Assembly: GCA_015068735.1 (NCBI GenBank)
Contig: SVJW01000002.1
Span: 11,438 to 75,437 of the forward strand
Direction: 5' to 3'
DNA from: Oscillospiraceae bacterium
GTDB taxonomy: Bacteria > Bacillota > Clostridia > UMGS1883
Length of the DNA: 64,000 bases
This document shows, one piece after another, positions 10,302 through 63,454 of this stretch. Within the stretch, counting starts at the first letter, position 1; each line of letters begins with the position of its first letter. A model generated the notes under the pieces. That model did no database searches. It was not told the origin of the DNA and saw only the letters and a list, made by a program, of their open reading frames with translations. The position numbers and the translations under genes were made by a program.

Positions 10302-10351
10302 AAAAGCAAAGCAGGATGCAGAAGTAATTTTCTGCATCCTGCTTTGCTTTT
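10302..10351. terminator. Bidirectional intrinsic terminator (22-bp perfect stem, 6-nt loop, A/T-tract arms) 10 nt after the malic enzyme stop
   Basis: AAAAGCAAAGCAGGATGCAGAA gtaatt TTCTGCATCCTGCTTTGCTTTT. The stem arms end in T-runs on both strands. Confidence 0.6.
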
Positions 10352-10360
10352 ACCGAATTT

Positions 10361-11533: not shown

Positions 11534-11544
11534 AATTTATCCCC

Positions 11545-12627: not shown

Positions 12628-12827
12628 AAATAAACTCTCCCTTATGGATAATGATTGCAGGTTAATTATATATATAAGTAGGGCTTCCTGTCAATATCAT
12701 ACCAGTATTTGTCAGTGGAATTCTTGTGTTTGTCCGTTGAAATAACAGGGTGATTGATGCTATTATTAGAATGAGATTTTACACTCGATTACAACGCGGT
12801 TTTTATTTGAAAATATGAGGTGTTAAG

Positions 12828-21610: not shown

Positions 21611-21641
21611 GCGAGACTATATATTGACAGGAGTAAAGCTT

Positions 21642-39811: not shown

Positions 39812-39839
39812 AAGCAATATCAGAAAGGACAAAAGCACA

Positions 39840-46035: not shown

Positions 46036-46121
46036 ATAATTGCATTATTCATAGAATTATAACATAATATTTTTAGAATATAATACGCTTTTTCATAGAA
46101 ATACTTGCATAAAAGATAGAA

Positions 46122-46865: not shown

Positions 46866-47507
46866 AAGAAAAAGAAATGCACCCAATAAAGGCGGTTTAT
46901 CCCTAAGACCAACCGCCTAATATGAGTGCGTTCTTTTTAGACGAAGTTGCCCTCTCAGGGTTCGTAGTGCAATAACAGGGAGTTTATCTCTCTTCTTTTT
47001 ATTTTATTTTTTGCCAAACAAAATCCGAACAAATGCCTATATTAAGGGAAACAATGTGTTTTTGCCTTTAGTTTTCATTTATGCACGCCATTTTTTGAAG
47101 AGAATGAAATTTTGTAATACGTTCTGTAAGATAACAATTTATCTCTTTGAGTTCTATAGAGAGCGTCAAATATCGTTAAAAAACGCCCGAAAACGCCTAA
47201 AACAGTAGGTTTTGTAAATCTTACTGTTTATTTTTTTGCCATAACGTGTGGAAAATGTGTAACTTCCTATATAGTGTTGTGGCAAATTTGTGGCAAGTTT
47301 TTACATATCAACATCAGTTTCATCGTCAATGATGGGAGAAGGACTAATAGCCTCACATAAAGTCATACTGCTATCTATTATTAAAAGTCAAGTTTCGTAA
47401 ATGATGCTCTTTTATACAATCAACTATAAATCAACGAACAAACCCCTTATTTATAGCCGTTTTAAGATCAATTTTGGGATCCCAGTCAACTATGAGTCAA
47501 GTAAAAA

Positions 47508-48971: not shown

Positions 48972-49172
48972 AACATCAACCTCCATCGACTATACAATAA
49001 CATATTTTTTTAAAACAGTCAATATTATTATATCTTTCAATCAAGTAAATTATACTGGATTATTGGGAGTTTGAAGAAAACTGTGTTAAAATTTGCATTT
49101 AATTTCTATTTGCAGTCAAGTAAATATTAAATAAATAATCAAACGTTCTTTGTTTCCGATAAAAAACAGAAT

Positions 49173-50249
49173 TCAACACCAATCCTCATACAATTCCAAT
49201 GGTGTAGGAATATAACCTTGGTCAAACAGTTTAGCTGCTTTGCTTGTTGCGGTTACATAGTTGGTTTCTATATTGGATAGCATCCAAATCATACGGTTCA
49301 CTGCCTTTTTATCCATCCATTTTTTATATGTTGAAATTGCTCCAGCGACGCTTCTCGTATTGTTAGCATATTCTATAAACTCTTTTAAAAGTTCTGTGTT
49401 ATCGGGTTTGTATTCTCCCATATCGATTCTTTTCAAAGCTTCTGAAAGTGTGCAGATTTTTCCATCATTACATATCCTTGATAGATAGTATCGGAATAAA
49501 TAGTCTCCTATTTGCTGGGAAGAATCCATAAAGTCTTGAATGCTCTTCAATTTGAATTTCTTCTTTAATTCGCTGACTTTACCCTCCATACAGCGAATCT
49601 CTATACGAACTATTTTCTCTGTACGCTCTATTTCGGATGCGGGAAATATAGCTTTATTTTTGCCCTTTTGTTCTTTAATCATTTGTCGCTGTTTGTTATA
49701 TATTGAAACCGCTATATAGTTATCGTTGTATACTGTAAAATCATCTTTCATGGGTTTTGTTCGTTTTGACTTTTCATTATATACTTCATAAAGCATAAGG
49801 TGAGGAGGGATATTTGCTCTTTTCATTGTTTTTATATATGCTTTGACTTGCTCCTGGTTTGCAAGTTCTGCGTTAATACAGAAATCGATTCTTCGCATTT
49901 TGCAATCTTCAAGCAGGGGGAGAAGCTTGCATTTATTATGAAGAATGAAGTTCACCTCTTTTTCAAGTAGATCATAATCGTTTGTATCAAAAAGCCCGAC
50001 AAAATCATGATTATCCATGACTCGTCGGGCTGAAATTCTATATATAATATGGTAGGCGTAATAGCCTTTCTTTTTGTTTTTGGTTATAAACATTTTTATT
50101 ATGATCCCCTGTTTGGAAAGCCCCCAGTAACTCATTCCGTTTGATTCTTTTTTCCACTTGTCGGGATCTTTTGTTTTAAGTGTATCTTGAATTAATTTAA
50201 AATCATCACCGCAAAGGGTGTGGCTTACTTCAAATGTATGTATTGTCAT
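49173..50249 (-). CDS. Rep_trans-like replication initiator/relaxase (rolling-circle type), putative
   Basis: 358 aa from the ATG with a GGAGGA RBS (MTIHTFEV...). The motifs RIDFCINAE, VSIYNKQ and IVRIEIRCMEG resemble the Rep_trans RxDxxxD, YDK and RxExR blocks. This assignment was made from memory of the family motifs. Confidence 0.35.
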   Translation of the reverse strand: MTIHTFEVSHTLCGDDFKLIQDTLKTKDPDKWKKESNGMSYWGLSKQGIIIKMFITKNKKKGYYAYHIIYRISARRVMDNHDFVGLFDTNDYDLLEKEVNFILHNKCKLLPLLEDCKMRRIDFCINAELANQEQVKAYIKTMKRANIPPHLMLYEVYNEKSKRTKPMKDDFTVYNDNYIAVSIYNKQRQMIKEQKGKNKAIFPASEIERTEKIVRIEIRCMEGKVSELKKKFKLKSIQDFMDSSQQIGDYLFRYYLSRICNDGKICTLSEALKRIDMGEYKPDNTELLKEFIEYANNTRSVAGAISTYKKWMDKKAVNRMIWMLSNIETNYVTATSKAAKLFDQGYIPTPLELYEDWC

Positions 50250-50372
50250 TGTAAATTCCTCCATAAGTATATTTATATAAATACGCATTTTTATATATGT
50301 AATAATATGATTTATAGCTAGTAATTTAATGCTATAAACTGTAATTATTATTGCATTATCCATCCCCTCCCA

Positions 50373-50391
50373 AGCTTATATAGCTTATATA
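50373..50391. repeat. Tandem 9-bp direct repeat AGCTTATAT x2 about 130 bp upstream of the Rep_trans-like gene (possible iteron or origin remnant)
   Basis: agcttatat agcttatat aaa is seen directly in the sequence. It is flanked by a partial inverted repeat CCTCCC...GGGGAGG. Confidence 0.3.
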
Positions 50392-50477
50392 AACATTATC
50401 CTACCGTGGGGAGGATTGTGAATCATTATTATAAATATGTTATGAAGTTTTGAAATTAAATTTTATTCTAAATAAAG

Positions 50478-50510
50478 GCGTTGCGGAAAATGCCGCAACG
50501 CTCTTTTTTC
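50478..50510 (+). terminator. Orphan rho-independent terminator on the plus strand (GCGTTGCGG-aaaatg-CCGCAACGC followed by TCTTTTTT) with no obvious upstream plus-strand gene
   Basis: A 9-bp GC-rich stem and a T6 run. The sequence upstream contains only an 11-codon ORF. Confidence 0.5.
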
Positions 50511-50919
50511 TATGCGCCGGAAACATTATTGTTAAAAAAGGGTAAAGCATACAATGATTATATGGATTTGAGTCTTGCTGTGCCGATAATATTAGTAAAA
50601 TATATGCTCTTATTAAGTTGCTGCTGTACACACAGTTAGTAGTATTAAATTTAATTATTGAGCACTCAAACACACGAATTGTAGTGCTTTTATTGGTTTA
50701 AAACATATAAACAAAAACCCAACTAAATTGTGGTAAATTTTTGGAAATTATTTTTGTTTTATCTCGTTATTAACAAGAAATTTGGCGTTGAAGGGCAACT
50801 CTGGGTTTCCATATTGATGAAACACGAAAAGTCTATATTTTATAAAAAAAAGACAGTATTAACTAAAGCAATTTATGAGCGTAGGTTTTATAATGATATT
50901 ACAAGGAGGGGTGGATCTA

Positions 50920-51858
50920 ATGATAAGAATTGGTGTAGTAAACATTGACGTCTCTCATCCTCTTGCGTTTGCAAGCATACTAAACAACGGAAACAGGGCA
51001 AAATATGTAGCTGTTTTTAATGATGGTTTTCGCGGAGAGGACGAGGTTAATAACTTTGTTAAGACACAGGGGCTTGAAAAAATTTGCACCAGCATTGAAG
51101 AACTGGCAGATTATGTAGATGTTGGTTTTGTACAGGGATGTAATTGGGATAAGCATTTAGAATATGCCATGGCATTTATCAGCAGAAACAAACCTGTATT
51201 TATTGATAAACCAATTGTGGGTAATGTTGAGGAATGCCGGAAACTGATAGAATTAGAAGAAAATGGTGCGATTATCTTAGGATCATCTTCAGCAAGATAT
51301 TGTAACGAAGTAAGATATTTTTTAACGCTTCCTGAAAGCGAAAGAGGTAAAGTTTTACATATAGATATAACCGTTGGGGTTGATGAATTCAATTATGCGA
51401 TTCATGCGGTTGAAGCAATGTGCGCATTGGCGCAGGCAAAGCCGCTTTCTGTTAAATATGTTGGGACTTCCCATAAAGATAATCAGTCTTGTGAAACATA
51501 CTTTGTGGAATTTGAAGGTGGAACAACGGCGTGCTACCATTGCGTTGAAGGTAATTATGTGAAATTCAATATAATTATATTAACAACCACGAACAGCTAC
51601 TGTATGACCGTGGACAACAATGCTTTGTACGGTGCTTTGCTGGATGAAGTCCTCAATAAACTTGAAGGCAAAAAAAACGCACTTGCAAATATGGAAGAAA
51701 TTACTGACAGTATTAAAGTATCTCTTGCAGGAAAGTGCTCGAAGGAAAACGCCGGAAAGGTTGTGGAAATAAATTCTTCAGAGCTTAAAACAGTTCACTT
51801 TGACGGTTATAAGTTTGAAAAAGAATATGCTGCTAAAGCACAACCGATATATTTGTGA
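50920..51858 (+). CDS. Gfo/Idh/MocA-like protein with a degenerate dinucleotide-binding motif (possible non-canonical or pseudo-oxidoreductase)
   Basis: 312 aa ORF from the ATG with an AAGGAGG RBS. MIRIGVVNIDVSHPLAF replaces the usual GxGxxG motif. A VFIDKPI motif sits in the position of the family EKP motif. The C-terminal alpha/beta domain has a GFO_IDH_MocA_C-like pattern. Confidence 0.4.
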   Translation: MIRIGVVNIDVSHPLAFASILNNGNRAKYVAVFNDGFRGEDEVNNFVKTQGLEKICTSIEELADYVDVGFVQGCNWDKHLEYAMAFISRNKPVFIDKPIVGNVEECRKLIELEENGAIILGSSSARYCNEVRYFLTLPESERGKVLHIDITVGVDEFNYAIHAVEAMCALAQAKPLSVKYVGTSHKDNQSCETYFVEFEGGTTACYHCVEGNYVKFNIIILTTTNSYCMTVDNNALYGALLDEVLNKLEGKKNALANMEEITDSIKVSLAGKCSKENAGKVVEINSSELKTVHFDGYKFEKEYAAKAQPIYL

Positions 51859-51879
51859 TATTAAAGGACAAGTGATACT

Positions 51880-53172
51880 ATGGCATCAAAATTTCGAATT
51901 TGCAAAGCAAGTTGTTGTTATGAAAAAGAACCTCTGAAAACGGCATTCGGATTTAAAGGTAGTGCGCTAACGTGTCTTTGGCAAACAGTTGTAAGGCTTG
52001 AGACGGACAACAATATCGGTATCGGACTTGGCGTACAGAGTGTTTTGTGGTCTGATGCAACTGTTTTTCATGCACTTGGAGAAGAAGAGGGAAATCGCGC
52101 AATGTTTAAGCTTACCAAATATGCCGTAAGCCTTTGCGAGGGAATGGAGATTGAAACTCCTTTTGAGGCGATAGATACTCTTTTTCCAATGGTTTATTCC
52201 TATGCAAAGGATATAACCGGTTGTGAAAATTTGCGAACAACCTTTGTTCTCAATGCGCTTGTTCCTCTTGATTTTGCACTATGGCAATTATGGAGCAGGG
52301 AAAACGGAAAGACTAACTTTGACGAAATCAGTCTGTTCGACGGAAAAAGGCAGAGCAAGCTTGCAAATATTCCGCTGATTACATACAATACGCCGATTGA
52401 AACGGTAAAGGATATGGCTCGGAACGGAACGGCCCTCTTTAAAATTAAAATCGGTTCAGACCCACTAAAGAACAATGATCTGGATGCAATGCTTTCCTGG
52501 GATAAAAATCGGCTTTTAGAAATTCACAATGCGGTTAAGGATATTAAAACTCCCTATACAAAGACAGGCGGCGTATTATATTATTTGGATGCGAACGGGC
52601 GATATGATACGAAGGAAAGGCTGAAGGCACTACTCGATTTTGCAGAGGAAAACGGCATTTTAGAAAGAATTGTTCTTTTGGAAGAACCGTTTGATGAGCA
52701 GAATAAAATTAATGTGGGTGATTTGCCCGTTACTGTTGCGGCAGATGAAAGCGCTCACAGCCTTGAAGATGTAAAGGAACGTTTCGAACTTGGCTACAAA
52801 GCGTTGACGCTTAAGCCGATTGCAAAAACCTTAAGCGTGACGATCAACATGGCAGATTATGCGCGTAAGCACGGTATGGTTTGCTTCTGCGCTGATTTAA
52901 CTGTAAATCCGATTATGGTTTCGTGGAATCAGTGCGTTGCCGCGCGGCTTCATACTTTACCGCAAATGAATATCGGTGTTATGGAGTCTAATGGGGAGCA
53001 GAATTACATAAACTGGGAGAACATGCACAAACTTCATCCTTTTTATAATGAAAGCTTTACAAAATGCGAAAATGGTATTTTTAATTTAAATAATATCTTT
53101 TATGCTAAAAACGGTGGCATATTTGAACTGCCAAGGCATTTTGATATTTTAACGCTGAAGGAGGGGGAGTAA
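51880..53172 (+). CDS. Enolase-superfamily enzyme (mandelate racemase/muconate lactonizing enzyme family; probable acid-sugar dehydratase or epimerase)
   Basis: The N-terminal capping domain pattern is LKTAFGFKGSALTCLWQTVVRLETDNNIGIGLG. The KxK block is FKIKIGS, and the metal ligands are YYLDANGRY, LEEPF and AADES. Confidence 0.65.
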   Translation: MASKFRICKASCCYEKEPLKTAFGFKGSALTCLWQTVVRLETDNNIGIGLGVQSVLWSDATVFHALGEEEGNRAMFKLTKYAVSLCEGMEIETPFEAIDTLFPMVYSYAKDITGCENLRTTFVLNALVPLDFALWQLWSRENGKTNFDEISLFDGKRQSKLANIPLITYNTPIETVKDMARNGTALFKIKIGSDPLKNNDLDAMLSWDKNRLLEIHNAVKDIKTPYTKTGGVLYYLDANGRYDTKERLKALLDFAEENGILERIVLLEEPFDEQNKINVGDLPVTVAADESAHSLEDVKERFELGYKALTLKPIAKTLSVTINMADYARKHGMVCFCADLTVNPIMVSWNQCVAARLHTLPQMNIGVMESNGEQNYINWENMHKLHPFYNESFTKCENGIFNLNNIFYAKNGGIFELPRHFDILTLKEGE

Positions 53173-54195
53173 TTGAGCGACTTCAGGTTTGGTATATGGG
53201 GCTGCGGCTTGATTTCTAAATTTCACGCCGAAGCGATAGAACAGCTAAGTGGTGCTGTTATAGCGGGTGCATTTGATATCAACGAAGCATCGCGTGATAA
53301 ATTTTGTGAAACGTACGGTGCGAAGCCCTTTATGAGCGAAGAGGAGTTTGCCTCTTCCAACGAGATAGACGCTATTTGCATTTGCTTGCCGAGTGGTCTT
53401 CATTACGATGCCGCTATGCTGTGTATCAGGAATAAAAAACACGTTGTTATTGAAAAACCCATAGCGCTTACTTCAAGCCAGGCTGGCGATATTGTAAAGG
53501 CAGCTGATGAAAACGGCGTTTTCGTTTCGGTTATTTCGCAGCTTCGCTACTCTGATGCGGTAAAAGAGGTTAAGCGCATAGTAGACAGCGGAAAGCTGGG
53601 AACGATTACAATAGGAAATGCTATTATGAAATACTGGCGCAGCCCGGAGTACTACAAAACAGGCTCGTGGCGTGGAACATGGGAAATGGACGGCGGTGGA
53701 GCACTTATGAATCAGGGCATTCACGGCGTTGACTTATTACAGTATTTTATGGGTAAAGTGGTGGCAGTTTCTGCTTTTGCAAAAACACTGGTACACGATA
53801 TTCAGACAGAAGATACGCTGACGGCTGTCTTAGAATACGAAAACGGTGCCATCGGAACCATTCAGGCAACGACATCTGTTGCACCGGGTTATGGTCGTCG
53901 GATAGAGATTTGCGGTTCAAAGGGAAGTATTGTTCTGTGTGAGGATACAATTGAAATATGTGATGTTGAAGGGGAAAACAAGCCTATTTCTGATTTAAAG
54001 AAAGGCCATGCATCCGCCAGCAGACCTGACGGTATAGACTCTTCTCTTCACGCATTGCAATTGCGGGACTTTATAAAGGCTGTACAAATGGGCGAAAAGC
54101 CCTGGATAGATGCCAATGAAGGCAAAAAGTCTGTAGATATTATTTGTGCGATTTATGAATCGGCACGAAGTGGAAAGAAAGTATATTTAGATTGA
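53173..54195 (+). CDS. Gfo/Idh/MocA-family NAD(P)-dependent oxidoreductase
   Basis: The Rossmann motif FRFGIWGCGLIS, the EKP motif VIEKPIALT and the C-terminal domain are present. Its start overlaps the stop of the enolase-family gene. Confidence 0.8.
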   Translation: MSDFRFGIWGCGLISKFHAEAIEQLSGAVIAGAFDINEASRDKFCETYGAKPFMSEEEFASSNEIDAICICLPSGLHYDAAMLCIRNKKHVVIEKPIALTSSQAGDIVKAADENGVFVSVISQLRYSDAVKEVKRIVDSGKLGTITIGNAIMKYWRSPEYYKTGSWRGTWEMDGGGALMNQGIHGVDLLQYFMGKVVAVSAFAKTLVHDIQTEDTLTAVLEYENGAIGTIQATTSVAPGYGRRIEICGSKGSIVLCEDTIEICDVEGENKPISDLKKGHASASRPDGIDSSLHALQLRDFIKAVQMGEKPWIDANEGKKSVDIICAIYESARSGKKVYLD

Positions 54196-54234
54196 TAAAA
54201 ATTATTTATATATAAAATTTCAGGAGGAATTATT

Positions 54235-55248
54235 ATGTCAAAAAAAGTGAGATTAGGTATTATTGGTGCAGGCGGTATGGCTACAAACATCCACGTTCCC
54301 AGTATTATGGAAATTGAAGAATGTGAAATTGTTGCTATTTGTGACTTGTACGAAGAAAAGGCTAAGGCCCTTGCCGAAAAATACGGCATAAAGAAAACAT
54401 ATGCACTTCATCATGAAATGATAGCAAATGAAGAATTAGACGGCGTGGTTATTTTGGTTAATCCTGACCGTACTTATTGGGTTGCGGATACATGCTTGAA
54501 AGCAGGTCTCCATGTGTTAATGGAAAAACCTGCAGGACTTAATGCTTATCAGGCTCATTCTATGGCAAGAACTGCTGAAAAAATGGGCAAAATTGCCGCA
54601 GTTGCTATGAACAGAAGACATATTCCTATGGTTCAAGAGGTATTGAAGAAAATAAAAGCTGTTACAGAAATTACACAGATTGACAGCCGCTTTATGAAAT
54701 ATTCCGATATACATAATGACTGGCATTATGCAAGTGCATACAATTGTGATATTGTACACGCACTTGACCTGCTTCGTTATGCTGCAGGCTCTGAACCGAA
54801 GGATGCGGCTACAGTAGTTCAGCGTTTTGATTCTCCTGTAGATAATGCTTGGAGCAGTATCGTGCGTTTTGAAAACGGAATTACAGGAACCCTGCGTGCT
54901 AATTATCGTAGTGCGGCTCGTTTCCACGATTTTGAAATCCACGGTCCTGGTGCAAGCGCATACATCAACCTCGGTTTCGGTGATACAAAATGTAGCGCAC
55001 AGATTCATTATAATGAAGGTGGATCTATGTACTCGGCAGCGTCTGCAGGTGTAAGAGAATCAGACGTTGAATATTTAGATGCTGTTGAACTTGCCGGAAG
55101 TGATAAGTACTCTCACTATTACGGCTACAAGGCAGAAAATGTTGATTTCGTTAATTGTATTCTTAACGGCACAAAGCCCCTTTGCACTATAGAAGATGCG
55201 GCTAAATCCATGGATATGGTAGAGCTTTTGCTTGAAAAGAGAATCTAA
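54235..55248 (+). CDS. Gfo/Idh/MocA-family NAD(P)-dependent oxidoreductase
   Basis: The Rossmann motif VRLGIIGAGGMATNIH, the EKP motif MEKPAG and an AGGAGG RBS are present. Confidence 0.8.
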   Translation: MSKKVRLGIIGAGGMATNIHVPSIMEIEECEIVAICDLYEEKAKALAEKYGIKKTYALHHEMIANEELDGVVILVNPDRTYWVADTCLKAGLHVLMEKPAGLNAYQAHSMARTAEKMGKIAAVAMNRRHIPMVQEVLKKIKAVTEITQIDSRFMKYSDIHNDWHYASAYNCDIVHALDLLRYAAGSEPKDAATVVQRFDSPVDNAWSSIVRFENGITGTLRANYRSAARFHDFEIHGPGASAYINLGFGDTKCSAQIHYNEGGSMYSAASAGVRESDVEYLDAVELAGSDKYSHYYGYKAENVDFVNCILNGTKPLCTIEDAAKSMDMVELLLEKRI

Positions 55249-55350
55249 AAAATAAAGAAATCTTCTGTCAAATCCGGCTTTCACAGGTCTGATTTGACAG
55301 AAGATTGATATATCAAGTTGATAAGACAAACGGTCAGGGGGGTATAGGTT

Positions 55351-56298
55351 GTGGCTAATCTTGTTACATTAAGCACCATTGGGGCTAAGGAAGCTGACTT
55401 TAGCTCTTTGCCGAAGAATTTTACGGTATATGAGAAAGAAATTAAGGCTAAGCTAAAAAGACAAATTGATGAGGTTTTACCGAGTAATCCAGATTTGATT
55501 GTGTTCCCGGAATGTGCAAACCGTTACGTGCCGAATACAAGACTGGAACTGAAGGAATACTATAAGCACCTTGGGGATAGCATTGAAGAATTTTTAAAGC
55601 CAATAGCTATTGAAAATAATACAAACATAGCATACAGTGCAGTACGCTATGCAGATCCGTCTGATATTAAACCTTTCCGTAACTCCACCGTGTATATAAA
55701 CAGGAAAGGCGAAGTGAACGGAATTTATGATAAAAACCATTTGATAGTTGAAGAAAATACCCAGGGTGATGTGCGATACGGCACACAGGCAGAGCTTGTT
55801 GAACTGGACTTTGGAAAGGCAGCATCAGTGATTTGCTTTGATTTAAATTTTGACGAGCTATTATATAAATATAAACCGCAAAACCCTGACTTGATTGTTT
55901 TTTGTTCAATGTTTCACGGTGGGCTAATGCGACAAGCTCAGTGGGCATATACATGCCGCAGCTACTTCGTTGGCGCAGTTTGTGATAATCCGTGTTATAT
56001 TTTGAATCCTTACGGCGATATTATTGCTTCTTCTACTAATTATACAAAGCATGTCAGCGCTAAAGTAAATCTTGATTATGCGCTATGTCATTTAGACTAT
56101 AATTGGGATAAATTTACAGCGGCAAAAAAGAAATACAAAGATGCTCTTACTGTGTATGATCCCGGATTTGTAGGTTCGGTTATGCTTACCTGCGAAATTC
56201 CCGATATGACAGTATGGGACATTATATCGGAATTTGAAATTGAGCCTCTCGATGATTATTTGGAAAGAGTGCGGGCGCATCGCTTGACAAATTTATAA
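55351..56298 (+). CDS. Carbon-nitrogen hydrolase (nitrilase-superfamily) protein, putative amidase
   Basis: 315 aa ORF from a GTG. The catalytic-triad-like blocks LIVFPE (Glu) and ASVICFDLNFDE (Cys) and a nitrilase-like alpha-beta-beta-alpha pattern are present. The start is uncertain. Confidence 0.5.
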   Translation: MANLVTLSTIGAKEADFSSLPKNFTVYEKEIKAKLKRQIDEVLPSNPDLIVFPECANRYVPNTRLELKEYYKHLGDSIEEFLKPIAIENNTNIAYSAVRYADPSDIKPFRNSTVYINRKGEVNGIYDKNHLIVEENTQGDVRYGTQAELVELDFGKAASVICFDLNFDELLYKYKPQNPDLIVFCSMFHGGLMRQAQWAYTCRSYFVGAVCDNPCYILNPYGDIIASSTNYTKHVSAKVNLDYALCHLDYNWDKFTAAKKKYKDALTVYDPGFVGSVMLTCEIPDMTVWDIISEFEIEPLDDYLERVRAHRLTNL

Positions 56299-56334
56299 TT
56301 TCGTAGGAGTGTATAACAAGGGGAGGGTTGGTTT

Positions 56335-57138
56335 ATGAATTTAAGTAATTTTGATATTCTTTGGATAGAATCTTGTACGTATCTGAGTGAAACCGGAATT
56401 CCTAAGCATAAACACGAGTTTTTTCACTTTATTTATGTCGATATCGGCGTAGGTGAAATAACAATCGGCGAAACAAGGTACGCTATGAACCCTGGAAACA
56501 TTTATTTGGTTTCTTCCTTTGTTGACCATACTTTTTTTAATACAGATAAAACTCCTTTAAAAACTCTTGAGATAAAGTTTAGTTTAAATGATGAAGAAAC
56601 GGTAGATTTAATAAGAAGGTTACCAGTATGTGTAAATGTAAAGAGCTACCCGATCAAAAATATTCTGTTAACTATTCTCAATGAATCTTTAAAAGAGCTT
56701 CCGATGTCTGAGAATGTTATCAGTCTAAATTTTCAGTTGATGTTGACTTATTTGTTACGTTGTTATGAAAGTCTTCCAGGAAATTCTAAGTACAATAACA
56801 GCAGAAAGAAATTTTCTCCTGAAATTGATAAGGTCATAAATTATATATATGAAAATCTCACGGAAGATATTTCTTTAGAAAAATTAGCCAACATTGCAGG
56901 TTTTGAAAAAAACTACTTTTTAAGAAAGTTTAAAAGACAAACAAAACGTACACCTATGATTTTCATCAGAGATAAACGAATAGAAAAAGCAAAGGAGCTT
57001 CTGCGCTATTCGGATATGAATATTTCGCAAATAGCTCTTGCAACAGGTTTTAAAAGTATTCACTATTTTTCAAAGGTTTTCTTTGAATGTATGGGTATGA
57101 GACCTCTTAGCTACAGAGATAAAAACAATATTAAATAA
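56335..57138 (+). CDS. AraC-family transcriptional regulator (cupin + HTH)
   Basis: The C-terminal HTH is IALATGFKSIHYFSKVFFECMGMRPLSY. The N-terminus is a cupin-type effector domain. Confidence 0.75.
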   Translation: MNLSNFDILWIESCTYLSETGIPKHKHEFFHFIYVDIGVGEITIGETRYAMNPGNIYLVSSFVDHTFFNTDKTPLKTLEIKFSLNDEETVDLIRRLPVCVNVKSYPIKNILLTILNESLKELPMSENVISLNFQLMLTYLLRCYESLPGNSKYNNSRKKFSPEIDKVINYIYENLTEDISLEKLANIAGFEKNYFLRKFKRQTKRTPMIFIRDKRIEKAKELLRYSDMNISQIALATGFKSIHYFSKVFFECMGMRPLSYRDKNNIK

Positions 57139-57171
57139 GACTTGCAGATAACTACCCGGAGGAGGATAATG

Positions 57172-58029
57172 ATGCGCTTAGGAGTTATTACGGATGAGGT
57201 TTCTCAAGATTTCAGGGAAGCACTTGAGTTTGCGAAAAAATTTGAACTTGATTGTGTAGAGTTACGCTCTGCTTGGGAAAAGGGACCGTTTGACTATATC
57301 TGTGAAGACATTATAAAACTGAAAGCTATTTCCGATGAATACGGGATTCCGATTACAGCAGTTTCTTCACCAATATTTAAATGTGACTATAATGCGGAAA
57401 ACATAATGAGCCATCAGGAACATTTCAAGAGATTGCTTGAATATGTCTGCATTTTAGGGGCAAATAAAATCAGATGCTTTGATTTTATAAAAAGTGACAA
57501 TGTAACGCGTGACATGATAATAGAAGCATATCAGATTCCCTATGAGCTTTGTGAAAAGGCGGGTGTGACGATTGCGATTGAGTCAGAGCCTACCACAAAT
57601 TCCTCTTGTTGCAGGGACATCGCAGAGCTTGTCAGAGCTTTTAATAAACCTTATTTTAAAGCCCTCTATGACCCCGGTAACAACATTTATTGTACAGAAG
57701 AGATCCCTTACCCTGATGGGTTTGAGTTTATAAAGGATGTATTTTGTCATGTACATATAAAAGATGCAGTAAGAACTCCCGGCGGAACAATCGGAGAATG
57801 TGTGGGAAAAGGCAGTGTAAATTACGATGGGCTTTTCAAAAGGCTTCATACAATAGGATATGACGGAGACGTAATGCTTGAAACACATTATCGTATACCG
57901 GGTACGGTAAAAATTGATGATGCTACATTGGCTAATCCAAAAGGAAGCGCTATTTCAGAAAACGGTTACGAGGCAAGCTGTATATGTATGGAGCAACTCA
58001 AAGAAATCGTTAAAAGGTCGATGTACTGA
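57172..58029 (+). CDS. Sugar phosphate isomerase/epimerase (xylose isomerase-like TIM barrel)
   Basis: MMRLGVITDEVSQDFREALEFAKKFELDCVELRS is typical of AP_endonuc_2/TIM barrel sugar isomerases. It starts at the second ATG, with a GGAGGA RBS. Confidence 0.7.
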   Translation: MRLGVITDEVSQDFREALEFAKKFELDCVELRSAWEKGPFDYICEDIIKLKAISDEYGIPITAVSSPIFKCDYNAENIMSHQEHFKRLLEYVCILGANKIRCFDFIKSDNVTRDMIIEAYQIPYELCEKAGVTIAIESEPTTNSSCCRDIAELVRAFNKPYFKALYDPGNNIYCTEEIPYPDGFEFIKDVFCHVHIKDAVRTPGGTIGECVGKGSVNYDGLFKRLHTIGYDGDVMLETHYRIPGTVKIDDATLANPKGSAISENGYEASCICMEQLKEIVKRSMY

Positions 58030-58041
58030 AGGAGACGTAAA

Positions 58042-58806
58042 ATGCTTAAAGAATTACAAAAAGATAAGTTAAATGTTTTGATTTTTGAAACACGCGAAGA
58101 AATGGGAAAAAAGGCAGGAAGTGACGCCGCAGAGTGTATAAAAAAGCTACTTTCCGAAAAGGAAGAGGTTAATATGATTTTTGCGGCAGCACCCTCGCAG
58201 AATGAAACACTTGCTTCACTTATAGCCGCGCAGGGTATTGACTGGAGCAGGGTAAATGCATTCCATATGGATGAATACATAGGTCTTTCACCGGATGCAC
58301 CGCAGGGCTTTGGGAACTTCTTGAAAAATGCAATTTTCAAGAGACTCCCATTTAAAAGTGTTAACTATATTTATGCAGAGGGAGAAACTGCAGAGGAAAC
58401 CTGCGCACGCTACACAAAACTTATAGGGGAAAATCCTATTGATGTAGTGTGCCTCGGTATAGGTGAAAACGGCCACATTGCATTTAACGACCCATGGGTA
58501 GCAGATTTTAAAGACGGTAAGGTTATAAAGAGGGTTGAACTTGACGAGGTTTGTCGTCAGCAACAGGTAAATGACCGATGCTTCAGCAAACTTGATGATG
58601 TGCCAAAGTATGCACTTACCTTGACCGTTCCAACACTCTTTAATGCAGACTATCTTTTCTGTACAGTCCCTGCACCAACAAAGGCAGATGCAGTCTATAA
58701 GACGGTAAATAACGATATAAATGAAGAATTACCGGCAACTATAATGCGAAAGCACAATAATGCGATTATGTACTGTGATAAAGACAGTGGTGCAAAGCTT
58801 TTGTGA
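58042..58806 (+). CDS. Glucosamine-6-phosphate deaminase/6-phosphogluconolactonase-family protein (NagB-like)
   Basis: 254 aa ORF with the FHMDEYIGL motif (NagB fnlDEY block) and a Glucosamine_iso fold pattern. Confidence 0.65.
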   Translation: MLKELQKDKLNVLIFETREEMGKKAGSDAAECIKKLLSEKEEVNMIFAAAPSQNETLASLIAAQGIDWSRVNAFHMDEYIGLSPDAPQGFGNFLKNAIFKRLPFKSVNYIYAEGETAEETCARYTKLIGENPIDVVCLGIGENGHIAFNDPWVADFKDGKVIKRVELDEVCRQQQVNDRCFSKLDDVPKYALTLTVPTLFNADYLFCTVPAPTKADAVYKTVNNDINEELPATIMRKHNNAIMYCDKDSGAKLL

Positions 58807-58835
58807 TCACGAAAATATAAAAGGAGATAAAGTGT

Positions 58836-59957
58836 ATGATTGTGCACCCTTTAGAGCTTTCAAAACGTGTGTGTGATAATCTTATCGAAACATTTGAACC
58901 AAATGAACTGGAACCTGTGAATAGACCATGGTTTTATGCTCACGGATTATTTATGTGCGGTTTGCAATGCTTGTATGAACTGACAGAAGATCAAAGGTAT
59001 CTTGAATATACGAAAAAATGGGCAGATTCCAAAATTGATGAAAACGGTGAATTCTATTTTAAGAATTCTTTCATCGAAGGTAGCGACCAACCGTGTTTTT
59101 GTCCTCAGTTAGATGCAGTTCAGCCCGGCTTACCTTTCTTTAAATTATATAGGATTTACGGTGATGAAAAATATAAACACGCTATAGAAGTTCTGTTTGA
59201 TTTTTTGAAAAATGCAGACAAAACCAGCGAGGGTGGATATTTCCACTACTGGTATAAAAATCTCTTTCCGTTTCAGATGTGGCTTGATGGCCTTTATATG
59301 GCGGAACCGTTTACTATGGAGTATTACTTGCTGACCAAAAAAGAAGAATGTCTGGATATGATATGGAATCAGTTCAGGCTTATAACAGAGCATACCCGTG
59401 ATGAAAAAACCGGGTTGTTGTTCCACGGTTGGGACGAAACGAAAGAGGCAGCCTGGGCAGATAAAGAAACCGGACATTCGAGTGAATTCTGGGGACGTTC
59501 AATAGGTTGGTACGGTGTTGCTTTGGCAGATATTTTAGAACATTTCCCAAAAGAACGTCCTGAGTATGAAAAAATGAAGAAAATGCTGCTTGATGTGATA
59601 GAGGCAGTTCTTAAATATCAGGATGAAAGCGGACTTTGGTATCAAGTGTTAGATAAGGGCGATAGGGAAGATAACTGGCTCGAAAGCTCTTGTACGTGCT
59701 TGTATCTGTATACATTGTCCAAGTGTATCAGGCTTGGATTTTTGTCAAAAGATTATAAGAAACAAGCAGATAACGCATATCTGGGTATTCTAAAAATGCT
59801 CAAAGAGGATAACGGGCGTATTCTTATGGAAAACATATCAAAGGGCTTAAATGTTGGTGATTACGAGTATTATGTTGGAGTAAAAAAATCAAATAGTGAT
59901 TTGCATGGTATCGGGGCATTGGTTTTGGGCATTACCGAGTATGCAAAGATTTACTGA
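58836..59957 (+). CDS. GH88/GH105-family unsaturated (rhamno)galacturonyl/glucuronyl hydrolase (second paralogue)
   Basis: 373 aa ORF alignable by eye to the ORF at 11545-12627 (YAHGLFMCGLQCLYELTEDQRYLEYTKKWADS versus YHQGVFLSGMMNNYKLTGEEKYYDYIKAWVDS). Confidence 0.75.
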   Translation: MIVHPLELSKRVCDNLIETFEPNELEPVNRPWFYAHGLFMCGLQCLYELTEDQRYLEYTKKWADSKIDENGEFYFKNSFIEGSDQPCFCPQLDAVQPGLPFFKLYRIYGDEKYKHAIEVLFDFLKNADKTSEGGYFHYWYKNLFPFQMWLDGLYMAEPFTMEYYLLTKKEECLDMIWNQFRLITEHTRDEKTGLLFHGWDETKEAAWADKETGHSSEFWGRSIGWYGVALADILEHFPKERPEYEKMKKMLLDVIEAVLKYQDESGLWYQVLDKGDREDNWLESSCTCLYLYTLSKCIRLGFLSKDYKKQADNAYLGILKMLKEDNGRILMENISKGLNVGDYEYYVGVKKSNSDLHGIGALVLGITEYAKIY

Positions 59958-59995
59958 GTTTTACACGAAGAAGACTATGTATGGAGGGATTTTAT

Positions 59996-60949
59996 ATGAA
60001 AAAAGGGAAATCGGAATATCATTCCGTAAAGAATAAAGCGCCGCTTTTGAAAAGATTAAAAAAAGATGTTTTTTCAAATTACGAGCTTTATCTTATGTTA
60101 CTTCCGGTTGTGGCGTTTTATATTATATTTCATTATGCACCAATGTATGGTGTTTTGATGGGATTTCAAGATTACAAGCCGATGCTTGGTATAGAAGGCA
60201 GCCCATGGGTTGGATTTCAACATTTTACTGACTTTTTTAATAGCCCCTATTTTTTCAGGGTAATTAAAAACACATTGACTATCAGCTTGTCGCAGCTCTT
60301 TTTCAGCTTCCCTATGCCAATAATTCTGGCACTGCTTTTAAATGAGGTCAAAACCCGATGGTTCGGACGTACAATTCAGACGGTGACTTACATACCGCAT
60401 TTTATATCCTTAGTGGTTGTGTGTGCGTTGGTACGCGATTTTACATCAGATACAGGTATTATTACTTCAATATTTAAGTTTTTTGGCTATGATGGACGTA
60501 CAATGCTGACTAAACCGGATTTATTCGTTCCGATATATGTTACTTCCGGAATATGGCAGGAGATTGGTTGGAACTCCATTATTTATCTGGCCGCTCTTTC
60601 TGCTGTAGATGCACAGCTTTATGAGGCTGCAGCGATTGATGGTGCAGGTAAATGGAGACAGACAATTCACATTACTCTTCCAAGTATTCTGCCGACCATT
60701 ATTATTTTGCTTATTCTGAAAATGGGCACCCTGTTGAGTGTCGGATATGAAAAAGTGTTGCTTCTTTATAACCCCGGTATCTACGACACGGCAGATGTTA
60801 TATCAACATATGTATATCGCTTAGGTTTTGAAAGTGCCAGCTACAGCGCAAGTACCGCAATTGGTCTTTTTAATTCGCTGGTAAATATTATATTGGTTGT
60901 AATGGCAAATACGTTGAGTAAAAAATTCAGTGAGACATCATTGTTCTAA
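59996..60949 (+). CDS. ABC transporter permease, LplB-like (paralogue of 16770-17720)
   Basis: The EAA loop is YEAAAIDGAGKWRQ. It starts at the second ATG, with a GGAGGG RBS. Confidence 0.8.
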   Translation: MKKGKSEYHSVKNKAPLLKRLKKDVFSNYELYLMLLPVVAFYIIFHYAPMYGVLMGFQDYKPMLGIEGSPWVGFQHFTDFFNSPYFFRVIKNTLTISLSQLFFSFPMPIILALLLNEVKTRWFGRTIQTVTYIPHFISLVVVCALVRDFTSDTGIITSIFKFFGYDGRTMLTKPDLFVPIYVTSGIWQEIGWNSIIYLAALSAVDAQLYEAAAIDGAGKWRQTIHITLPSILPTIIILLILKMGTLLSVGYEKVLLLYNPGIYDTADVISTYVYRLGFESASYSASTAIGLFNSLVNIILVVMANTLSKKFSETSLF

Positions 60950-60963
60950 AGGAGGGATGTAGT

Positions 60964-61845
60964 ATGAAAATTAAAGAAAGTTTGGGTATGAAAGTTTTTC
61001 GCTTTATTAACGGTATAATTTTAACAGCACTGGCTATTGCTTGTGTTTACCCTATGTATCACGTTATTATGGCATCTTTTTCAGATGGCTACAGTCTTCT
61101 TGGTCACAGCGGAGCTTTGATAACTCCATTGAATTTTAATCTTGACGGATATGAAAAACTATTTGAATATCCAATTTTGCTTAAAAGCTACGGTAACACG
61201 CTTTTTATATGCGTTGTACAGCTTGTCTTGAATGTGATTTTAACTTCCTTTGCGGCTTATGCTTTAACAAGAAAGGAACTGCATATACGTCGCTATGTAA
61301 TGTTGTTTATACTGTTTACAATGTACTTTAACGGCGGTATGGTGCCAACATATATGCTTATCAGGGATTTAGGGCTTTTAAATTCGCTCTGGTCTATTAT
61401 TCTTCCGAGTGCATTGACAACTTATAATTTGATTGTGTTGAGAACTGCATTTGCAGCTGTTCCGGAAAGCTTGTATGAATCGGCACGGTTGGATGGTGCA
61501 GGACATTTTCAGATTTTATTTAAAATTTACTTGCCACTGACAAAAGCATCACTTGCAGTTGTAGTGCTTTATTATCTTGTGGCAGCATGGAGCAGCTGGT
61601 TTTCTGCATCTCTTTATTTGGATGATCGTGAAAAATATCCTCTGCAACTACTTCTCCGTGAGATTTTGATTGAGAACGATGCCGGAGAAATGAGTGCAGG
61701 TGTATCGGACTCAGAGAAACAGGCAGTAAGCGAAACACTCAAATACTCAGCCATTGTGATTTCTACTATTCCGATTTTATGTGTGTACCCTTTCTTGCAG
61801 AAATATTTTGCAAAGGGCGTTATGATTGGCGCGGTAAAAGGTTAA
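60964..61845 (+). CDS. ABC transporter permease, LplC-like (paralogue of 17733-18602)
   Basis: The EAA-like loop is ESARLDGAGHF. The C-terminal motif KGVMIGAVKG is identical to that of the first copy. Confidence 0.8.
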   Translation: MKIKESLGMKVFRFINGIILTALAIACVYPMYHVIMASFSDGYSLLGHSGALITPLNFNLDGYEKLFEYPILLKSYGNTLFICVVQLVLNVILTSFAAYALTRKELHIRRYVMLFILFTMYFNGGMVPTYMLIRDLGLLNSLWSIILPSALTTYNLIVLRTAFAAVPESLYESARLDGAGHFQILFKIYLPLTKASLAVVVLYYLVAAWSSWFSASLYLDDREKYPLQLLLREILIENDAGEMSAGVSDSEKQAVSETLKYSAIVISTIPILCVYPFLQKYFAKGVMIGAVKG

Positions 61846-61876
61846 TTTTAATATAAAAAAATAGGAGGAAATGAAT

Positions 61877-63454
61877 ATGAAAAAATTTAAAAAGCTTTTA
61901 GCATTGGCTATGTCACTTGCCTTGGTTGCAGGATGTAGCGGGAAGAAGACTGTAGGAAAAGTCGAGATAGGTGAGGCAAAATACGGTGATACCTATCCCA
62001 TTGAGTCAGAGGTTAAATTAACCCATTGGATGCCTATGAATGCAAAAATTTCTGTAAGTGCTTCAAACTTCGGTGACCTTCCCGTTGCAAAAGAACTTGC
62101 GGAAAGAACAGGTGTTAAGGTTGAATACATTCACCCGTCTCTTACAAATGCAACAGAAAAATTTAATATGATGATTGCCAGTGGTGAACTTCCGGATATT
62201 ATCACATATAACTGGGAGAGTTATCCCGGCGGTCCTGCTAAAGCAATTGAAGACGGTATTATATTGCCGCTTAATGATCTTATTGACGCGTATGCACCTA
62301 ATTTAAAAGCTTTCTATGAAGAAAACCCGGAGTTAGCAGCAGAATGCCGTACAGCAAATGGTGATTATTATTCGGCAGGTATGTTTATGGGCGACAGAAA
62401 GCTTCAGACATCAGCAGGTGTTATAATCAGACAGGACTGGCTTGATGAGTTAGGATTAGAAATGCCTGAAACAATTGAAGAATGGGAAGTTGTACTTCGC
62501 GCTTTTAAAGAAAAGAAGGGGGCAACTGCGCCTTTATCACTGACATTGTCAGCTGTATCAAACGGTGCTTTTACAGGTGCTTTTGGAGTAACAACCAGTT
62601 ATTACCACATAGGAGATACCGTACATTTTGGCCCTATGGAAGATGGCTATAAAGAATTTTTGGAGACAATGCACAGATGGTATAAAGAAGGACTTCTTGA
62701 TCCAAACTTCTCTACTACTGATTCAGCAACAATTACATCAAACATGCTTAATGGTAAAACAGGAGCAATGAATGGAGCTTTAAGCGGCGGTATCGGTTCT
62801 CTGATTAAAGCGTCAACTAATCCTTCAGCTAAGTATGCTGGGGCTCCATATCCCACTCACAAGAAGGGCGAAACACCGATGTTCGGACAGCTTGTTTCGA
62901 ATACACTTCCTCATGCTGCCATTACTACTCAGTGTAAGGATATTGAACTTGCAATGCGCCTTCTTGACTATGGTTACAGCGAAGATGGGCACATGTTTTT
63001 CAACTTCGGTACAGAGGGAGAAACCTACAATATGGTTGACGGCTACCCCACTTATACAGATTTAATTAAGAACAATCCTGATGGTCTTTCTATGGCTCAG
63101 GCAATGACAAAGTATACCATGAACGGTGACAGAAACAGCTTTGTTCAGGACGTACGCTATTTGGAACAGTACGCAGGTCTTCCTGAACAGCAGCAAGCAT
63201 GGGAAACTTGGTGTAATACCGATGCCGTTAAATATGTATTGCCAAATCTGTATATCCCTGAGAATAAAAGCTCAGAATATGCAACTAAATCAACAGCTAT
63301 AAGTTCCTACGTGGATGAAATGTATGTAAAGTTTATTACCGGAACAGAGCCGATTGAGAATTTTGATAAATATGTTAAACAGTTGAAAAAGTTAGGCATT
63401 GAAGATGTCCTTAAGATAAAACAGGAAGCTTATGATGCATACTTGAAACAGTAA
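61877..63454 (+). CDS. ABC transporter solute-binding lipoprotein, LplA family (paralogue of 15208-16746)
   Basis: The lipobox is LVAGCSG. It is about 45% identical to the first SBP by eye. It starts at the second ATG, with an AGGAGG RBS. Confidence 0.8.
   Translation: MKKFKKLLALAMSLALVAGCSGKKTVGKVEIGEAKYGDTYPIESEVKLTHWMPMNAKISVSASNFGDLPVAKELAERTGVKVEYIHPSLTNATEKFNMMIASGELPDIITYNWESYPGGPAKAIEDGIILPLNDLIDAYAPNLKAFYEENPELAAECRTANGDYYSAGMFMGDRKLQTSAGVIIRQDWLDELGLEMPETIEEWEVVLRAFKEKKGATAPLSLTLSAVSNGAFTGAFGVTTSYYHIGDTVHFGPMEDGYKEFLETMHRWYKEGLLDPNFSTTDSATITSNMLNGKTGAMNGALSGGIGSLIKASTNPSAKYAGAPYPTHKKGETPMFGQLVSNTLPHAAITTQCKDIELAMRLLDYGYSEDGHMFFNFGTEGETYNMVDGYPTYTDLIKNNPDGLSMAQAMTKYTMNGDRNSFVQDVRYLEQYAGLPEQQQAWETWCNTDAVKYVLPNLYIPENKSSEYATKSTAISSYVDEMYVKFITGTEPIENFDKYVKQLKKLGIEDVLKIKQEAYDAYLKQ

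Follow-up and report, generated by a model that had tools for sequence, protein, structure and literature searches.

A gene module pairing an uncharacterised enolase-superfamily protein with Gfo/Idh/MocA dehydrogenases adjoins a GH105 import block in an Oscillospiraceae bacterium

What is the substrate of a gene cluster that places an enolase-superfamily protein, Gfo/Idh/MocA proteins, a C-N hydrolase, a TIM-barrel protein and a NagB-like deaminase directly ahead of a GH105 glycosidase and an oligosaccharide importer? This arrangement starts at position 50920 of the window, the 64,000-nucleotide stretch of contig SVJW01000002.1 from an Oscillospiraceae bacterium that is analysed here. A preliminary description of the DNA had read the genes at 50920–59957 as an alternative to the KduI/KduD route for the unsaturated uronate released by GH105, possibly in an aminated or N-acylated form. 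Our analysis favours a mosaic of two modules, the first of which (module A) would convert a carboxylate-bearing N-acyl amino sugar. We hold this reading tentatively and give it as a whole a probability of about 0.42.

The open reading frames (ORFs) of the window were scanned against Pfam and NCBIfam profiles, and gene starts were read from the ORF table. Every gene named in the preliminary description lies where it had been placed, on the + strand, within a single co-directional cluster that runs from 50920 through the window end at 64000. The features are as follows.

50477–50502, unstranded: bidirectional intrinsic-terminator-like hairpin (10-pair stem, 7 G–C pairs, T-runs on both strands)
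50920–51858, + strand: GfoN, a degenerate Gfo-like protein of 312 amino acids (aa), matching the N-domain PF01408 only (E 3e-10)
51880–53172, + strand: ENOL, an enolase-superfamily protein of 430 aa (PF13378, 35 bits)
53173–54195, + strand: GfoB, a complete Gfo/Idh/MocA protein of 340 aa (N- and C-terminal Pfam domains)
54235–55248, + strand: GfoC, a complete Gfo/Idh/MocA protein of 337 aa (PF01408, 79 bits; PF22725)
55351–56298, + strand: C-N hydrolase of the nitrilase superfamily, 315 aa (PF00795, 62.8 bits, cut-off 23.2)
56335–57138, + strand: AraC-family regulator with a cupin sensor domain and a helix-turn-helix domain, inside the operon
57142–58029, + strand: xylose-isomerase-like TIM barrel (PF01261, 92 bits)
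58042–58806, + strand: NagB-like deaminase/isomerase, 254 aa (TIGR00502, 134.5 bits, cut-off 236.9)
58836–59957, + strand: GH105 glycosidase of the YteR type (PF07470, E 1e-105)
59981–60949, + strand: ATP-binding cassette (ABC) sugar permease of the LplB/YteP type (PF00528)
60964–61845, + strand: ABC sugar permease of the LplC/YtcP type (PF00528)
61871–63454, + strand: lipoprotein solute-binding protein of the LplA/YtcQ type (PF13416 and PF12010, the DUF3502 C-terminal domain)
63492–64000, + strand: fourth Gfo/Idh/MocA gene, at least 169 aa and cut by the window end (GYGLRG loop and LLEKP motif in the translation)

Intergenic gaps in the cluster measure 0–102 bp, and a search for intergenic terminators between 50920 and 63454 found none; in particular, a gap of 29 bp that holds no terminator separates the NagB-like gene from the GH105 gene that follows it. 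The hairpin at 50477–50502 marks the 5′ boundary of the cluster, closing off the upstream region. The cluster extends past both 59957 and 63454, and its fourth Gfo/Idh/MocA gene, which the preliminary description had not seen, begins with an ATG at 63492, 37 bp past the binding-protein gene. At the other end, an AGGAGG ribosome-binding site precedes the GfoN ATG at 50920. The TIM-barrel ORF as listed starts at a TTG codon; the corresponding gene in relatives encodes 285 aa, and translation probably begins at an ATG at 57169 or 57172 instead, which would give a protein of about 285 aa.

Comparison with other genomes divides the cluster in two. We called ORFs in 80 genome loci and several metagenome loci and compared them with the window proteins; the counts below refer to 81 non-redundant related ENOL loci (individual loci are cited by L numbers), and 231 operon neighbours of ENOL were also scanned against Pfam. 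GH105 or GH88 occurs in none of the 81 loci, and no Glyco_hydro_88 domain was found among the 231 neighbours. The gene order of the window, GH105 included, is retained only in a 96%-identical relative (L085). In an 83%-identical relative (L087) the gene set consists of SLH proteins, GfoN, a GH36-like protein, C-N hydrolase, ENOL, GfoB, GfoC, TIM barrel, a major facilitator superfamily (MFS) transporter, NagB, NagA and a SASA esterase, so that GH36-like, NagA and MFS genes replace GH105. A 75%-identical relative (L001) has the module followed directly by NagB, NagA, UxuA, a short-chain reductase and RbsD. The glycosidase beside the ENOL module changes from locus to locus (GH20, GH36-like, GH95, GH109 with GH28, GH4, GH38 or a GHL10 protein). 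Conversely, L089 contains the GH105–permease–permease–binding-protein block at 68–78% identity and no ENOL module.

The absence of GH105 from related ENOL loci, the GH105–ABC block standing alone in L089 and the varying glycosidases together show that the cluster is a mosaic of two separable modules. Module A (50920–58806) comprises GfoN, ENOL, GfoB, GfoC, the C-N hydrolase, the AraC regulator, the TIM barrel and the NagB-like protein, with ENOL and the Gfo dehydrogenases as its core. Module B runs from 58836 to past 64000 and holds GH105, the two permeases, the binding protein and a YteT-like Gfo protein. The coupling of the enolase–Gfo set to GH105 does not extend to the related loci, and the coupling of module A to an unsaturated uronate appears to be confined to the lineage of the window.

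The partnership that does recur is that of ENOL with Gfo/Idh/MocA proteins, which make up 81 of the 231 neighbours (35%) and are the dominant partner; a gene of the GfoB/GfoC type is present in 44 of 80 ENOL loci. Other recurrent neighbours, counted over the 81 loci, are D-2-hydroxyacid dehydrogenase (22), C-N hydrolase (15), TIM barrel (14), NagA-like, NagB-like and GH109-like proteins (8 each), a ceramidase-like amidase (7), Amidohydro_2 proteins (6), DegT aminotransferase (6) and DHDPS-family proteins (3). Neighbours of an amide or amine type (NagA-like, NagB-like, C-N hydrolase, ceramidase-like, DegT, GH20 or GH109) occur in 32 of the 81. ENOL is always found in sugar-utilisation contexts. 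No kinase or phosphotransferase system (PTS) lies next to the module in the window or in most related loci; kinases do occur in some loci (BadF-type in L043, FGGY in 3 loci, APH in L003).

A minimal module of GfoN, D-2-hydroxyacid dehydrogenase, GfoB and ENOL recurs in gut Clostridia (L023, L024, L031, L076, L017, L030, L039 and others), sometimes with an Amidohydro_2 pair and lacking the C-N hydrolase, TIM barrel and NagB-like genes. Because such a module exists, the conserved chemistry may be simpler than the window operon implies.

ENOL carries the catalytic set K188-I-K190, D237, E268, D289 and K312, which is that of the muconate lactonizing enzyme (MLE) type and bears out the earlier recognition of a KxK motif and D/E/D ligands. 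Residues K188, K190, D237, E268, E269, D289, E290, K312 and K316 are invariant in an alignment of 17 sequences, the other members of which are 53–83% identical to ENOL. An AlphaFold2 model (pLDDT 94, pTM 0.92) has an α+β capping domain and a modified TIM barrel, as in the MLE subgroup. In this model the metal ligands D237, E268 and D289 sit at the ends of predicted strands 233–237, 264–268 and 286–288, K188-I-K190 lies on strand 186–190 and K312 comes right after strand 308–311. The top Foldseek matches in the PDB are all MLE-subgroup enzymes (probability 1.00, TM score 0.55–0.80, 13–21% identity), the best being dipeptide epimerases, N-succinylamino-acid racemase/o-succinylbenzoate synthase and muconate cycloisomerases (MLE). 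Sequence searches of the PDB are weak for ENOL, with no match better than E 0.05 for the single sequence and a best match of E 5.5e-4 (4gfi) for a family profile, so that the fold comparison alone is informative. The Pfam match, too, is weak and limited to the C-terminal domain PF13378.

Curated family models place ENOL outside the named groups. It scores 18.5 bits against the dipeptide epimerase model PRK15129 (cut-off 343), 24.9 bits against the o-succinylbenzoate synthase model TIGR01928 (cut-off 200.65) and 24.3 bits against the model of the N-acetyl-D-Glu racemase DgcA (cut-off 400), that is, 10–20 times under the cut-offs, and is 13–19% identical to solved dipeptide epimerases. An exhaustive search of 1.84 billion cluster representatives (50% identity clusters) returned no more than 421 family hits at E ≤ 0.001, a number that falls to 85 at E ≤ 1e-30 and includes many fragments; the family is a compact clade sharply set off from the rest of the superfamily. 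The gene is present in at least 591 species-level genomes, the best match being 79% identical. Murimonas intestini DSM 26524, Paenibacillus mesophilus, Cohnella silvisoli and Kiritimatiellaeota B1221 are cultured carriers, and by lineage the carriers include gut and rumen Clostridia, Paenibacillus, Cohnella, Planctomycetota, Verrucomicrobiota, Kiritimatiellota, Lentisphaerae, Bacteroidales, Armatimonadota and Omnitrophota. Identity across phyla is 46–52%, suggesting a single conserved function. One locus, L064 of Paenibacillus sp. MBLB4367, has two tandem ENOL paralogues (9968–11263 and 11367–12656).

Automatic annotation at NCBI and JGI names some of these homologues 'L-alanine-DL-glutamate epimerase', a name that the family-model scores do not back and that we regard as a probable widespread mis-annotation. 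ENOL belongs to a small, isolated and genuinely uncharacterised family of the MLE subgroup, and our literature search found no paper on this family or on the gene cluster, in agreement with the preliminary description of the operon as uncharacterised. Enolase-superfamily chemistry needs a carboxylate with a neighbouring proton, and ENOL is predicted to use its Lys/Lys pair for Mg2+-assisted abstraction of the proton adjoining a carboxylate.

The commonest partner of ENOL among the related loci is GfoB. Both GfoB (GCGLIS loop, IEKP motif) and GfoC (GAGGMA loop, MEKP motif) have the two Pfam domains of the family above cut-off. In the PDB, GfoB matches WlbA best (3q2k, E 1.3e-48; 3q2i, E 3.2e-46), with 31–33% identity and a Foldseek TM score of 0.87, the entry titles confirming WlbA; next comes the P2B11 glucuronide 3-dehydrogenase (8tdi, E 8e-29, 24% identity). 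Homologues of GfoB at 51–53% identity are named 'UDP-N-acetyl-2-amino-2-deoxyglucuronate dehydrogenase' by JGI. Orthologues of GfoC follow GfoB in L001, L007–L009, L011, L022, L085 and L087, and we propose that GfoC is the reducing partner for a keto intermediate.

GfoN differs from both. Only its N-terminal domain matches Pfam (41 bits), its loop is a conserved GxVxIDVSHP where GxGxxG is expected, and DKP replaces EKP; the family motifs are GxVxIDVSHP, CNWDKH, KPVFIDKP and GVDEFNYxIH. Orthologues accompany ENOL in 27–31 of about 80 loci. GfoN forms a conserved family in its own right and is a specific partner of the ENOL gene; it may serve GfoB or ENOL in a non-redox or non-catalytic capacity. 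The fourth Gfo protein is 27% identical to the one adjoining GH105 in L091, and similar Gfo genes lie beside GH105 in both L089 and L091.

The remaining enzymes of module A point to amide, amine and keto-sugar chemistry. The triad of the C-N hydrolase (E54, K128 and C162) is intact and conserved in 13 orthologues, the best PDB match is yeast Nit2 (E 2e-7), and the protein is predicted to be an amidase or deacylase. The TIM barrel has weak matches to ketose 3-epimerases and is predicted to be a keto-sugar epimerase, isomerase or eliminase. The NagB-like protein aligns with Bacillus subtilis NagB (2bkv) at E 1e-27, the alignment including MDEY and GHIAFND; equivalents of D72, H143, R172 and K208 are kept, E148 is replaced by D and the TGGTP loop, a phosphate-loop motif, becomes AAAPS. 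A lactonase assignment, which the inclusion of 6-phosphogluconolactonase in PF01182 would allow, is not favoured (56 versus 134 bits, with the deaminase catalytic residues kept). Orthologues of the AraC regulator hold the same position in L001, L007–L009, L022 and L085, and an AraC gene whose product is 45% identical to that of the window lies in divergent orientation alongside the stand-alone GH105 block of L089.

In module B the glycosidase itself is well placed. It matches B. subtilis YteR (1nc5) over its full length (residues 4–370, E 1.9e-97, 42% identity) and GH88-annotated entries only at E 1e-10 or weaker, so by sequence it qualifies as a genuine YteR-type GH105, a homologue of unsaturated rhamnogalacturonyl hydrolase; D151 in its MWLDG motif presumably corresponds to the YteR catalytic Asp. 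The permeases are 78% (LplB/YteP type) and 77% (LplC/YtcP type) identical to those of L089 and the binding protein, which has a lipobox-like LVAGC in its translation, 70–74%. After L089, the next closest GH105 relatives have SLH-anchored Pectate_lyase_2 proteins, GH78 rhamnosidases and GDSL esterases for neighbours, and in many cases a different Gfo gene beside them. The window also contains a second YteR-type GH105 paralogue (11545–12627, − strand; 38% identical to the copy at 58836; 1nc5, E 1e-98), divergent from a 746-aa AraC-type regulator at 12828.

We envisage the two modules working as follows. Module B, an ordinary block for pectin-type sugars, would take up the unsaturated oligosaccharide that an extracellular lyase produces, and GH105 would remove the 4,5-unsaturated uronate in the cytoplasm. 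Module A, also cytoplasmic, would feed a carboxylated N-acyl amino sugar into a common intermediate; a hexosaminuronic acid is the likeliest such sugar. GfoB, being WlbA-like, would oxidise C3; the TIM barrel would epimerise the keto sugar and GfoC would reduce it again. ENOL would take the proton adjoining the carboxylate, leading to C5 epimerisation or 4,5-elimination. The C-N hydrolase would strip the N-acyl or amide group; relatives also have NagA-like or ceramidase-like amidases. Lastly, the NagB-like protein would hold the carboxylate in its anion site and deaminate and isomerise the sugar to a keto-uronate usable by standard Uxu enzymes; UxuA is attached directly to the module in L001. 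In the window lineage, module A probably handles the sugar left by GH105 or shares a regulator with module B, and is less likely to act directly on the unsaturated uronate. No less plausible as the sugar that enters module A is the second GH105 product, the one that bore the unsaturated uronate.

A hexosaminuronate is favoured as substrate because four features coincide: an MLE-type ENOL, a WlbA-like GfoB, the anion-binding residues of the NagB-like protein and the amide and amine neighbours. The nearest solved relative of GfoB acts at C3 of an N-acetylhexosaminuronate, UDP-N-acetylglucosaminuronate (UDP-GlcNAcA), which favours an amino sugar of the uronate type. The NagB-like protein keeps the anion-binding Arg and Lys and most loci are without a kinase, so a carboxylate could replace the phosphate.

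Several points weigh against this scheme. We infer all of its steps for module A. The classic uronate-pathway neighbours (UxuA, GH28 and GH105) occur in just 2 of the 81 loci, NagA-like and NagB-like genes are found in only about 10%, and the nearest structural relatives of ENOL use N-acyl α-amino acids, not uronates. The D-2-hydroxyacid dehydrogenases and lactonase-like Amidohydro_2 pairs suit a C1-oxidative aldonate route at least as well. Phosphorylated substrates are possible in view of the kinases in L043, L003 and the FGGY loci, and the closeness of GH105 to the NagB-like gene makes a direct metabolic link possible in this organism.

A wider and more doubtful proposal is that the ENOL–Gfo module constitutes an unrecognised catabolic pathway for hexosaminuronic acids in general, covering N-acetyl-glucosaminuronic, -mannosaminuronic and -galactosaminuronic acid (GlcNAcA, ManNAcA and GalNAcA), their L-series C5 epimers and 2,3-diacetamido forms; we think it conceivable and rather unlikely. 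Hexosaminuronic acids occur in bacterial capsules, O-antigens, teichuronic acids, archaeal glycans and pseudomurein and are common in microbial envelopes. To our knowledge no route for their degradation has been described, and our literature search did not find a catabolic route for acidic amino sugars. Were the hexosaminuronate reading true, ENOL would attack a free aminouronate at C5, by epimerisation or 4,5-elimination, and no other member of the enolase superfamily would have done so before it. Gfo enzymes of the WlbA type would reverse the 3-keto chemistry of biosynthesis, and the NagB-like protein would yield fructuronate, with the C6 carboxylate standing in for the phosphate.

The alternative that survives best, although we judge it unlikely, is a C1-oxidative, non-phosphorylative amino-sugar route via an N-acetylhexosaminate. 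Here a Gfo enzyme would oxidise C1 of an N-acetylhexosamine to a lactone and thence an N-acetylhexosaminate, chemically an N-acyl α-amino acid; ENOL would epimerise C2 or eliminate the 3-OH, amidases would free acetate and ammonia to give a 2-keto-3-deoxy acid, and 2-hydroxyacid dehydrogenases or further Gfo enzymes would process that acid. N-acyl α-amino acids are what the fold neighbours of ENOL (N-succinylamino-acid racemases and dipeptide epimerases) use, and ENOL has a weak match to DgcA too. The Gfo family includes aldose 1-dehydrogenases, and GfoB scores 67 bits against the model of the Haloferax xylose 1-dehydrogenase; GH20 and GH109 neighbours would release N-acetylhexosamines; and the Amidohydro_2 pairs (6 loci), from a family that includes sugar lactonases, together with the D-2-hydroxyacid dehydrogenases and DHDPS-family proteins, also speak for this route. 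The clear nearest relative of GfoB, however, is a C3 dehydrogenase of an N-acetylhexosaminuronate, and with a carboxylate at C1 a NagB-type aldose–ketose deaminase would be left without a substrate. For C1-oxidised N-acetylglucosamine (GlcNAc) a pathway is already known that runs on the enzymes OngB and OngC (PMC9537276); these are unrelated to the enzymes here, and we rejected that pathway as a homologous model for the module.

The KduI/KduD-independent route of the preliminary description fares less well, and we consider it distinctly improbable. On this view the TIM barrel would isomerise 4-deoxy-L-threo-5-hexosulose uronate and a Gfo protein would then carry out the reduction to 2-keto-3-deoxygluconate, while an aminated variant would fall to ENOL, the C-N hydrolase and the NagB-like protein. 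An aldose–ketose isomerase followed by a reductase is chemically adequate. As had been noted before, no KduI-type or short-chain-reductase (KduD-type) Pfam match was found among the window ORFs scanned, a few short ORFs of the housekeeping region having been left out of the scan. The tight spacing of NagB-like gene and GH105 also speaks for this route, the arrangement being kept in L085, as do the Gfo genes that accompany GH105 in L089, in L091 and at 63492. The Gfo proteins beside GH105 elsewhere are, however, of another type, 387–400 aa long, 26–31% identical to the window Gfo proteins and unlike GfoB and GfoC. The uronate product is nitrogen-free, leaving the C-N hydrolase and the NagB-like protein without a role; kduI and kduD may well lie elsewhere in the genome; GH105 is missing from all 81 related loci; and L087 has already exchanged it for GH36-like, NagA and MFS genes.

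Replacement of KduI/KduD cannot be the conserved function of module A, and for this one organism it is chemically possible. The earlier suggestion of an aminated or N-acylated substrate fits the amide and amine neighbours, whereas that of a KduI/KduD replacement acting on the GH105 product finds no comparative support. This illustrates the limit of inference from a single locus: adjacency to GH105 pointed to an unsaturated-uronate route that the comparative context did not bear out.

A third alternative, non-Koshland cleavage of glycosides through 3-keto intermediates in the manner of BT2156–2160 and P2B11, is slightly less probable again. GfoB would oxidise C3 of a uronide or amino-uronide, the TIM barrel would eliminate the aglycone and rehydrate, GfoC would reduce, and ENOL and the amidases would be accessory. 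The P2B11 cluster of a Gram-positive gut bacterium, which cleaves α- and β-glucuronides and 6-phospho and 6-sulfo glycosides, combines two Gfo and two TIM-barrel proteins that act on glucuronides through 3-keto intermediates (bioRxiv 10.1101/2024.03.25.586180); this composition is echoed in the window module by a TIM barrel and two or more Gfo proteins, and GfoB matches the P2B11 3-dehydrogenase. Yet the window has one TIM barrel rather than two and no DUF1080 protein, and the TIM barrel is found in only 14 of 81 ENOL loci, whereas ENOL and Gfo form the constant pair. This route, moreover, overlaps the two-module reading rather than excluding it.

That ENOL is an L-Ala-D/L-Glu epimerase recycling cell-wall peptides in coincidental sugar-gene surroundings is highly improbable: the database names of some homologues, the dipeptide epimerases among the nearest folds and an M81 (MlrC-type) peptidase gene in the window (39756–41252) would suit it, but the PRK15129 score, the 13–21% identity to solved epimerases, the sharp separation of the family, the prevalence of sugar dehydrogenases and the lack of any recurrent peptidoglycan-recycling gene among the 231 neighbours stand against it, so that ENOL, in keeping with the preliminary description, is not a known dipeptide epimerase.

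Nothing among the recurrent neighbours (no MurQ, NanA or FrlB-type genes) speaks for MurNAc lactyl-ether, pyruvyl-ketal, sialic-acid or Amadori/opine substrates, which we also considered.

Elsewhere in the window, a large second glycan-utilisation locus (12828–43768, + strand) encodes a long AraC regulator, a binding protein and permeases, CE4, two SLH-domain proteins, an aBig_2 protein, a GDSL esterase, a GH106-like rhamnosidase, the M81/MlrC peptidase, a NagA-like amidohydrolase and a ceramidase-like protein. Its amide-related genes (NagA-like, ceramidase-like, M81 peptidase and CE4) lie at 20735–43768. Three large proteins, encoded at 18649–20670, 21543–24314 and 37688–39811, have no Pfam match and could be new glycan-active enzymes. 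An 883-aa SLH protein of the window (26106–28757) is 24–25% identical to SLH proteins that directly flank ENOL modules (L087, 3023–5767; L010, 6780–9971), which hints that the two window loci work on one glycan. A low-GC stretch (46000–52000; GC 0.34 against about 0.40–0.43) holds a Schlafen/AlbA_2 and HATPase_c_4 protein (47508–48986, − strand) and a 396-aa ORF without a Pfam match (49173–50363, − strand). L085 has other genes upstream of the module, indicating a variable flank that is possibly mobile or defence-related.

Assigning a function to ENOL would add a reaction family to a well-studied superfamily, correct the 'L-Ala-D/L-Glu epimerase' mis-annotation and explain a block that recurs in the polysaccharide-utilisation loci of gut and environmental glycan degraders.

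How does the cluster compare with known systems? Module B resembles the B. subtilis yte/ytc operon, which we take to consist of YteR with the ABC importer YtcQ/YtcP/YteP and the Gfo-family protein YteT: the window GH105 is likewise followed by LplB- and LplC-type permeases, an LplA-type binding protein and a Gfo gene. The eight-gene module that precedes GH105 in the window is absent from the B. subtilis operon. The expected route for the GH105 uronate product is KduI and KduD followed by KdgK and KdgA, the first two of which have no counterpart among the ORFs scanned.

For module A, the closest solved counterpart by a wide margin is WlbA/WbpB, the UDP-GlcNAcA 3-dehydrogenase, with which GfoB shares its fold and EKP motif. 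WlbA, whose structure was solved with NADH and UDP-GlcNAcA, serves the biosynthesis of 2,3-diacetamido-2,3-dideoxy-mannuronic acid and thus uses a UDP-sugar in O-antigen clusters, whereas the operons that hold GfoB look catabolic, include importers and glycosidases and have no nucleotide-sugar genes nearby; the identity of 31–33% is too low to transfer the substrate. The 3-keto clusters (Bacteroides BT2156–2160, Alistipes AL and P2B11) have Gfo dehydrogenases and xylose-isomerase-like TIM barrels in common with the window. An enolase-superfamily enzyme, a C-N hydrolase and a NagB-like protein are absent from all of these clusters, the window lacks the DUF1080 protein that is a component of the Bacteroides type, and window proteins score 25–40 bits against the BT_2158 and BT_2159 NCBIfam models (cut-offs 650–750).

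The NagA/NagB route for amino-sugar 6-phosphates is matched by the catalytic Asp and His and the anion-binding Arg and Lys of the NagB-like protein and by NagA-like amidohydrolases, which occur near ENOL in 8 loci and in the window at 41268–42407. It differs in that the window scores fall under the equivalog cut-offs, the phosphate-loop motif is replaced and most loci have no adjoining kinase or PTS. ENOL itself shares with the MLE-subgroup enzymes (YcjG/YkfB, N-succinylamino-acid racemase/o-succinylbenzoate synthase and muconate cycloisomerase) the two-domain fold, the KxK motif, the Asp/Glu/Asp ligands and the second catalytic Lys. Those enzymes are 320–370 aa long, compared with about 430 aa for ENOL, share only 13–21% identity with it and have not been described with Gfo partners. 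In role, analogues exist in sugar-acid pathways, namely galactarolactone cycloisomerase and 3,6-anhydrogalactonate cycloisomerase. Dehydrogenases joined with enolase-superfamily enzymes in a sugar-acid operon are of a kind already known; the literature that we found describes neither the present enolase family nor its strict association with Gfo proteins, nor the amidase and deaminase set that goes with them.

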